Below are positions 36,537 to 37,079 of a DNA stretch of 64,000 bases, in pieces. Each line of letters begins with the position of its first letter. The stretch's first letter is position 1. The translations under genes and the position numbers were made by a program. Source of the stretch: a virus (Duplodnaviria > Heunggongvirae > Uroviricota > Caudoviricetes); IMG/VR virus record IMGVR_UViG_2541047596_000003. One strand, 5' to 3'. The notes under the pieces were generated by a model that was not told where the DNA came from, did not search any database, and was given only the letters and a program-made list of their open reading frames with translations.

Positions 36537-37079
36537 TCAGCCTCGTTTAAAACTCATAACACGCGGTACAAGCGCTTCTTTTGCTTTCGGCTTACGTTTA
36601 CCTTTCTTCGCTGGCTTTTCTTCTTCCTTCGGCTGTTCTGCCTGTTCCAGCGCCTGATCGACGACTTCTGCCGCCTGCATTGCTGCAACCTGTGCTTCGT
36701 TTGATTCTGCTAGGATAGGGAAAAACGCATCGAAGATACGGCCTACCATGTAAGCGTAAGTCTCATTCGCCGGATGGGTAGGATCCGTGGTAGCCACGAC
36801 GCCTACATCACTTAAAACGTGGAATGTAGTGTGGGCGCATTCATGGACCAGCGTTCCCAACTCATTGTTGAATACTGCGATCACGTAGAAGTTACCACCA
36901 TTCTCGCCAGTGCAAGTAAGCGTTAATCCTCCAGCCAACTCGAAATCAGGTTCAATCGGAATTCCTGCCTTTTCGCAAAATTCATAGAACATCTCGCGGG
37001 TCGGGCAAAAGAAAACGGTTGTATGCTCAAAGAGTGGGATCTTAAATTGAGGCAATTTAATGCCTTTAGCCTTAGCCAT
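36537..37079 (-). CDS. Putative Zn-metallopeptidase-like protein (HExxH) with Lys-rich tail (180 aa)
   Basis: LVHECAHTTFH contains HExxH; C-terminus KEEEKPAKKGKRKPKAK; stop lies 2 nt before the first tiny ORF. Confidence 0.5.
   Translation of the reverse strand: MAKAKGIKLPQFKIPLFEHTTVFFCPTREMFYEFCEKAGIPIEPDFELAGGLTLTCTGENGGNFYVIAVFNNELGTLVHECAHTTFHVLSDVGVVATTDPTHPANETYAYMVGRIFDAFFPILAESNEAQVAAMQAAEVVDQALEQAEQPKEEEKPAKKGKRKPKAKEALVPRVMSFKRG

Follow-up and report, generated by a model that had tools for sequence, protein, structure and literature searches.

Does the gene that separates the lysis and packaging modules of a group of E. coli prophages encode a working metallopeptidase and, if so, what would the enzyme cleave: the tiny hydrophobic peptides encoded immediately downstream, a protein of the phage, or a protein of the host or of a competing element? 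The question is raised by a stretch of viral DNA of 64,000 nucleotides (IMG/VR record IMGVR_UViG_2541047596_000003, hereafter the window), in which a 180-aa protein with a single HExxH motif and a lysine-rich C-terminus (KEEEKPAKKGKRKPKAKEALVPRVMSFKRG) precedes an array of tiny ORFs. An earlier note, made from the letters of the DNA, had described this product as metallopeptidase-like but of an otherwise unrecognised fold, had taken it to be co-expressed with the array, and had likened the pair to a precursor-processing or peptide-toxin system. Its basic description is confirmed: the ORF carries one HExxH (LVHECAHTTFH, residues 77-87, with H79, E80, H83 and H87), the stop codon lies 2 nt from the first tiny ORF (TGA tt ATG), and Pfam matches of the flanking genes place it between the lysis cassette and the terminase (Table 1). 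The window is here 100% identical to a prophage of E. coli M1/5, and it falls within the mEp021-like (mEpimmI) group, sharing 88-91% DNA identity with MagusPhagus, mEp010, mEp554, mEp044, mEp013, mEp021 and mEp515. The region of the gene is present in 34 of 5426 complete E. coli genomes, and near-identical homologues of the protein were found in E. coli prophages more than 100 times. No paralogue was found within the window. A 70-aa ORF lying out of frame inside Rz (37427-37639, minus strand), with the lipobox LSGC, corresponds to an Rz1-type outer-membrane spanin.

Table 1. Features of the locus in the window and of related loci (positions refer to the window unless a locus or record is named)
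Feature	Position	Strand	Evidence or remark
Gene for the 180-aa protein, stop codon included	36537..37079	minus	ATG ORF; phrog_1365 match, E 2.4e-31
Minimal zincin-like (gluzincin-type) metallopeptidase domain, predicted, residues 1-127	36699..37079	minus	AF2 model and library matches
HExxH codons, H79-E80-C81-A82-H83	36831..36845	minus	H79, E80 and H83 invariant
E106 codon, predicted third metal ligand, motif N-E-T-Y	36762..36764	minus	Invariant; first turn of helix 103-127
Lineage-specific C-terminal extension, residues 128-180	36540..36698	minus	Full-length model, homologue comparison
Lys-rich segment, aa 151-167	36579-36629	minus	Within the C-terminal extension
AGGAG Shine-Dalgarno (SD), 9 nt 5' of the ATG of the 180-aa gene	37089..37093	minus	Read from the sequence
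Structured leader, Rz to 180-aa gene: two hairpins, the second followed by UUAUAUUUUU, terminator-like	37085..37200	minus	RNA fold
Lysis cassette (holin, endolysin, Rz, embedded Rz1)	37359..38509	minus	PF16080, PF00959, PF03245
Holin	38309-38509	minus	Pfam
Lysozyme	37817-38308	minus	Pfam
Rz	37359-37847	minus	Pfam
Coupling junction AAACGAGGCTGAttATG: K-R-G codons, stop, 2-nt spacer, start of first tiny ORF	36532..36548	minus	Sequence; coding strand AAA CGA GGC TGA tt ATG, stop 36539-36537, next ATG 36534
Array of nine tiny single-helix ORFs	35795..36534	minus	20-36 aa each, GRAVY 0.8-2.5
Tiny ORFs 1-5	36445-36534, 36380-36442, 36270-36380, 36190-36264, 36098-36178	minus	
Tiny ORFs 6-9	36033-36101, 35950-36024, 35889-35957, 35795-35878	minus	
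Small terminase subunit TerS, Sf6 type	35269..35784	minus	PF20901, E 1.4e-36; phrog_1482
TerL	33780-35294		Pfam
Portal	32258-33652		Pfam
Tad2-like genes upstream of family members	L005 3660-3935, L006 3477-3944, L007 3665-3940, L026 2665-2940		PF11195
ORF of P22 identical to HK620 HkcC	L015 2501-2866 = BK000583.1 13861-14226	plus	Sequence

Among the 69 ATG-initiated ORFs of at least 100 aa in the window one HExxH is found, with 0.43 expected from composition, and its occurrence is therefore not remarkable statistically; the motif of the 180-aa protein is significant because it is conserved across homologues. Residues 1-131 match the PHROGs family phrog_1365, of unknown function, and the same family is matched by all 50 distant homologues, as well as by HkcC of HK620, orf129 of phage L, gp098 of Possum, Axy21_046, Kurepalu1_00034 and P4b_00035. 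When 1.84 billion cluster representatives were searched exhaustively with a profile, 225 were recovered at E<1e-3, most of them about 120 aa long and therefore consisting of the N-terminal domain alone. When 50 members with 26-55% identity to the 180-aa protein were aligned, the only invariant columns were G51, H79, E80, H83 and E106, H87 not being conserved. The HExxH is kept in 143 of the 146 library representatives that are no longer than 400 aa, the exceptions being one E-to-K variant and two sequences that diverge into unrelated residues and are probably truncated or frameshifted. This pattern bears on the possibility that the motif is non-catalytic and that a zincin-like scaffold has been kept in a structural or regulatory protein, for instance a lysis-timing factor or a decoy. 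Peptidase activity is a prediction, and lysis genes adjoin family members in many contexts, one of them, in Axy21, following the lysin directly; pseudo-enzymes, however, usually lose their catalytic residues, whereas here four catalytic residues and G51 are the sole invariant positions, which makes a non-catalytic role highly improbable.

An AlphaFold (AF2) model of the domain (m906dc9b476ec), built with the family alignment, reached a pLDDT of 92.9 and a pTM of 0.86. Strands are predicted at residues 11-13, 21-25, 51-57 and 63-69, and helices at residues 28-38, 74-91, which bears the HExxH, and 103-127, which starts near E106. Iyer et al. (PMC5512222) define the zincin-like MPTase core by a sheet with an N-terminal helix, one helix that bears the HExxH and another that bears a Glu, and the predicted fold of residues 1-127 matches this topology. 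The prediction has the attributes of a gluzincin, namely the HExxH on a helix, a conserved Glu on the next helix and the zincin order of fold elements; by gluzincin-type chemistry H79, H83 and E106 would hold the metal, and E80 would serve as general base. The protein is accordingly classed as a separate family of the gluzincin type within the zincin-like superfamily, outside PF18818, PF10263 and M78, because a zincin-like core is predicted yet the comparisons with Pfam, SprT and PF18818 are weak or partial. Thus the term metallopeptidase-like is borne out by the invariant HExxH and downstream Glu, by the high-confidence zincin model and by weak neighbours that are themselves metallopeptidases. 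The otherwise unrecognised fold of the earlier note is correct as far as Pfam is concerned, but it does not hold for PHROGs, where phrog_1365 is matched, nor for the zincin-like fold that is predicted.

No Pfam family was found above threshold for the 180-aa protein, for 16 close homologues or for 50 distant ones. The MPTase-PolyVal family PF18818 gave no hmmscan match at E<=10 for the protein and the 16 close homologues, or at E<=1 for the 50 distant ones. When the family profile was compared by hhalign with an ArdC-type PF18818 alignment built here, a probability of 74% (E 2.8e-5) was obtained over 59 columns, which span the strand and the HExxH helix only and leave the Glu helix unaligned; against ArdC of R388, as a single sequence, the probability was 36.5%. 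The nr record of P0118, which is 62% identical, is labelled 'PolyVal Metallopeptidase superfamily domain'. The two groups share the sheet, the HExxH helix and the Glu helix, and both are deployed by phages and plasmids, but the 180-aa protein is half as large, is free-standing, and in place of an ArdC-N or other fusion carries a Lys-rich tail. As for the SprT-like family PF10263, 15 of the 50 family members match it weakly and below threshold (best E 0.009), the 180-aa protein itself has no PF10263 match in Pfam, and E. coli SprT (YggI), compared with the family profile by hhalign, gave a probability of 5.8%, in effect no match. Spartan/Wss1-type enzymes possess DNA-binding regions, and a basic region beside a small zincin domain recalls them; in Spartan-type enzymes, however, the third ligand is a His, whereas the third conserved ligand is here a Glu and H87 is not conserved.

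Foldseek against viral models (BFVD) returned 29 small phage proteins at E<1e-3, and among the matches listed three are labelled SprT-like or metalloprotease. One family member adjoins a metallopeptidase gene of the PF18894 (PhageMetallopep) type, and hhalign of the family against this neighbouring protein gave a probability of 1.3%. Sequence and profile searches of the PDB yielded nothing significant, the best matches being a uridine phosphorylase (E 0.28) and an M35 peptidase (E 1.2). Peptidase_M78 (PF06114, ImmA/IrrE) was matched by only one of the 16 close homologues, with an E of 0.099, and no XRE/ImmR-type repressor gene adjoins the family gene in any context examined. The window gene differs further from ImmA/IrrE (M78) and CapP in its position in a late operon and in its much smaller domain. 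In size the domain resembles the minigluzincins (proabylysin, projannalysin and selecase), which are soluble gluzincin-type domains of about 110 aa and, to our knowledge, the smallest known metallopeptidases. Taken together, phrog_1365 is a widespread, uncharacterised family of very small phage zinc-metalloprotease-like proteins, with at least 225 cluster representatives at 50% identity, no Pfam model and no characterised function, and the window protein is a tailed member of this existing family.

The arrangement that had suggested peptide processing was examined at the junction with the array. The first tiny ORF encodes a hydrophobic peptide of 29 aa, and its GAGG Shine-Dalgarno lies inside the K-R-G codons of the 180-aa gene. 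All the tiny ORFs have their own start, and an SD-like motif is recognisable upstream of most. Gene and array occur together in all eight mEpimmI-type loci examined (the window, MagusPhagus, mEp021, mEp010, mEp554, mEp044, mEp013 and the metagenomic L024), where the arrays hold 5 to 12 ORFs whose cassettes are shuffled. Several tiny peptides are identical across phages, for example MIDPLIILSACVAVWLAIMIFIES, and the pooled codon variants comprise 59 synonymous and 41 non-synonymous changes; the tiny ORFs appear to be real and under purifying selection. They may be unannotated in E. coli genomes: a genome match spanning gene and array lists only 'hypothetical protein' features. Wherever the gene directly abuts the array in mEpimmI loci the 2-nt spacer and the internal SD are kept, so that the co-expression or coupling claimed by the earlier note is plausible.

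Coupling does not make the peptides substrates. If the 180-aa protein were a maturation or processing peptidase for the tiny hydrophobic peptides, in a RiPP-like or peptide-toxin system, the close spacing with its embedded SD, the constant association within the mEpimmI group and the apparent selection on the ORFs would find an explanation, and the likeness to RiPP and peptide-toxin leader peptidases, a putative peptidase gene followed by short ORFs, is evident. The aKG-HExxH peptide beta-hydroxylase model TIGR04267 (NCBIfam) is also matched, over some 25-30 residues around the HExxH, but with 11.3-16.3 bits against a curated cutoff of 40. In contrast to RiPP loci, gene and array are associated in a single phage lineage only: at none of 17 non-mEpimmI family loci was an array detected by a scan that covered 900 nt to either side of the gene and that recovers 8 ORFs in the window, and each of these loci gave at most one isolated match. 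The peptides are single hydrophobic helices, mostly with SD-like motifs of their own, and have no recognisable leader/core layout, and the number and order of the cassettes vary while the enzyme is constant. Moreover, at L003, which carries the nearest tail-bearing relative outside the mEpimmI group (55% identical), the K-R-G, stop and SD junction AAGAGAGGGTAAactATG leads directly into TerS, the gene stop lying 3 nt before it. In mEp013 an HNH gene stands between the protease-like gene and the array, and a 24-nt identical remnant of the stop/SD/start junction is found downstream of this insertion, before the first tiny ORF. The earlier note had named homologues without small hydrophobic ORFs beside them as the finding that would speak against its proposal, and this is what is seen at the 17 other loci and at the L003 junction; the co-occurrence fails outside the mEpimmI group, and a processing function is very unlikely.

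The simplest history would be an insertion of the array between the 180-aa gene and TerS in the mEpimmI lineage, in which case the array, placed before TerS, would have inherited a coupling junction that already existed; the direction of this event is the one suggested by the L003 arrangement. The array is judged to be co-transcribed with the 180-aa gene without being its functional partner, the enzyme would not mature the neighbouring peptides, and their adjacency looks like a lineage-specific accident and not a processing system. The protease and the tiny-peptide array are best treated as two separate features, of which the array is the more unusual.

On its other side the gene is set apart from Rz by a leader whose predicted RNA fold, at -37.7 kcal/mol (z = -4.1), was matched in stability by none of 200 shuffled sequences. 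The second hairpin is followed by a U-rich run, and terminators are annotated at the equivalent position in mEp021 and mEp013. A 31-aa ORF of this interval (37079-37174, minus strand) was considered as a gene and rejected, because it overlaps with both stable hairpins, at a position annotated as a terminator in related phages; it is probably terminator or leader and not a gene. The MagusPhagus record annotates this leader ORF as a CDS. Since the terminator-like leader separates the 180-aa gene from Rz, the gene is assigned to the packaging transcription unit, in which it is presumably read under antitermination; its transcription would be late, proceeding past the terminator-like hairpin behind the lysis genes.

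Gene contexts of the family were gathered by exact-protein look-ups and tblastn, with members confirmed by PHROGs. Family members lie between the lysis cassette and TerS in Citrobacter, Klebsiella and Paramixta prophages and in several metagenomic phages, where the adjoining TerS proteins belong to different families (Sf6 type, Terminase_2, GP3_package and HTH_23). Elsewhere the family gene is found between TerS and TerL, overlapping the TerL start, in the Pectobacterium N4-like lytic phage Possum (gp098, L018 1816-2163), just upstream of the portal gene in L028, between orf118 and dec in phage L/ST64T (orf129), beside hkcB in HK620 (hkcC), between the ligase and RNAP genes in Kurepalu-1, and in an early cluster of small genes in the Klebsiella N4-like phage VLCpiP4b. 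The start of the packaging module is thus the most frequent position, but not the only one. Contexts as varied as these indicate that the family gene is a mobile accessory gene.

The recurrent position beside the packaging genes is also an argument for a packaging or DNA-associated protease, a miniature Spartan/Wss1-like enzyme recruited through its tail, which would strip proteins from the DNA or process one of the packaging or head proteins, its action being timed to the moment at which the terminase starts packaging. Four loci (L003, L005, L007 and L026) have the family gene directly upstream of TerS with a gap of 3-4 nt, although their TerS families differ; the Possum and L028 arrangements point in the same direction, as do the shared transcription unit downstream of the terminator-like hairpin, the weak SprT-like HMM matches within the family and the Lys-rich H1-like tail. 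Against this, any insertion behind the lysis genes of a lambdoid genome would come to adjoin TerS, and the family is sporadic among close relatives. A P22 member sits beside sieA in the immI region whereas orf129 of phage L is at the lysis-dec position, and the members of Kurepalu-1 and VLCpiP4b are in early or middle regions. Most members have no tail, and the profile gives nothing against E. coli SprT. On balance, a packaging- or DNA-associated role seems unlikely.

The tail itself is a lineage-specific addition. The C-terminal extension comprises an acidic, Ala-rich helix up to about residue 147 and then the Lys-rich segment, and it closes with the motif VPRVMSFKRG. Modelling of the full-length protein places the last helix at 108-147 and leaves residues 151-180, with pLDDT<50, disordered. 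A long C-terminal tail occurs in four of the 143 HExxH-bearing representatives, and three of these four tails are K/E-rich. Its length differs between close homologues, and the closest long-tailed representative, P0121, which is 55% identical, ends in KEEKPKKASKPKAKPIKEEYVPRIARYKRG. The K-R-G-stop codons double as the downstream SD in both lineages, and conservation of the tail is therefore partly at the nucleotide level. Judged by its composition, the Lys-rich, histone-H1-like tail would most plausibly serve to tether the enzyme to DNA or another polyanion. The 3' end of the protease-like gene of mEp013 is interrupted by an HNH endonuclease gene (L014 2613-3098), in what looks like a homing-endonuclease insertion. 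The tail that replaces the original one there is still Lys-rich (KKEAKRKAKAKAKEPPK).

A basic tail could also serve for DNA binding or capsid targeting in an effector that is packaged with the DNA, injected, and active early in the next infection. It has been argued (PMC5512222) that delivery together with the DNA is the fate of MPTase domains and solo domains of polyvalent proteins when their genes stand among the late or structural ones, and this proposal, the late position of the gene next to the packaging genes and the hhalign similarity to the ArdC-type MPTase would agree with such a role. In mass spectrometry of CsCl-purified mEp021 virions, only two structural proteins from outside the main cluster were reported, both encoded upstream of the lysis genes, and the homologue mEp021_49 (gp49) was not among the virion proteins reported, which is weak evidence given that the analysis relied on gel bands and had limited sensitivity. 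No mention of mEp021_49 is made in the supplements of the mEpimmI paper. Most family members, moreover, have no tail, and virion delivery is considered quite doubtful.

The reading that we prefer, with a probability of about 0.6, is that the gene encodes an accessory, soluble, predicted zincin-like peptidase which acts on a protein substrate and is not a maturase of the tiny peptides. It draws on the ORF, the conservation of the motif, the predicted fold, the family distribution and the gene contexts. The product would be a Zn-dependent endopeptidase, made late, that cleaves its protein substrate in the infected cell; in this lineage a catalytic domain of about 125 aa would have been extended by an acidic helix and a disordered Lys-rich tail, and the gene would be a dispensable accessory at the head of the packaging operon. 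As substrate we infer a protein of the host or of a competing element, and a target related to counter-defence or to conflict is the leading guess. In four prophage or phage contigs that are unrelated to one another (Table 1) a Tad2-like gene (PF11195) directly precedes the family member, and one of these Tad2-like genes also carries Sequestin (PF21825); an AcrIF11-like gene and an Acb2/Tad1-hairpin-like gene are found near family members in L025 and L027. This distribution suggests a slot for anti-defence genes between the lysis and packaging genes. The accessory positions that the family takes up are also used by known anti-defence genes. The PADLOC anti-phage defence models gave no match at E<=1 for the 180-aa protein and seven homologues, and in the literature on phrog_1365, hkcC, orf129 and SprT-like or metalloprotease anti-defence nothing relevant was found.

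A bolder version of the preferred reading, which is offered tentatively and to which we give a low likelihood, is that these proteins are late effector proteases of a new kind, which would either destroy host immune proteins that sense late products, terminase or portal for example, or, in the tailed form, work as a 'mini-Spartan' tethered to the phage DNA, from which it would remove proteins before or during packaging. The immune-sensor version would explain both the placement at the head of the packaging genes and the repeated adjacency to Tad2-like and Sequestin sponge genes. Either function, if true, would be one not described before for a phage protein of phrog_1365. The phage counter-defence repertoire is mostly based on sponges and inhibitors, and a proteolytic mechanism would be added to it if the protein is an active protease that targets the host; the genetics would be easy.

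The family is present in classic model phages, P22, HK620 and phage L/ST64T, where it is sometimes unannotated. A family copy adjoins sieA in both P22 and HK620; the one in P22 is an intact 121-aa ORF that is identical to HkcC of HK620 and has the motifs HECAH and NETYCY. The P22 ORF is absent from the annotation of the P22 reference record, and the sieA promoter annotated on the opposite strand overlaps it.
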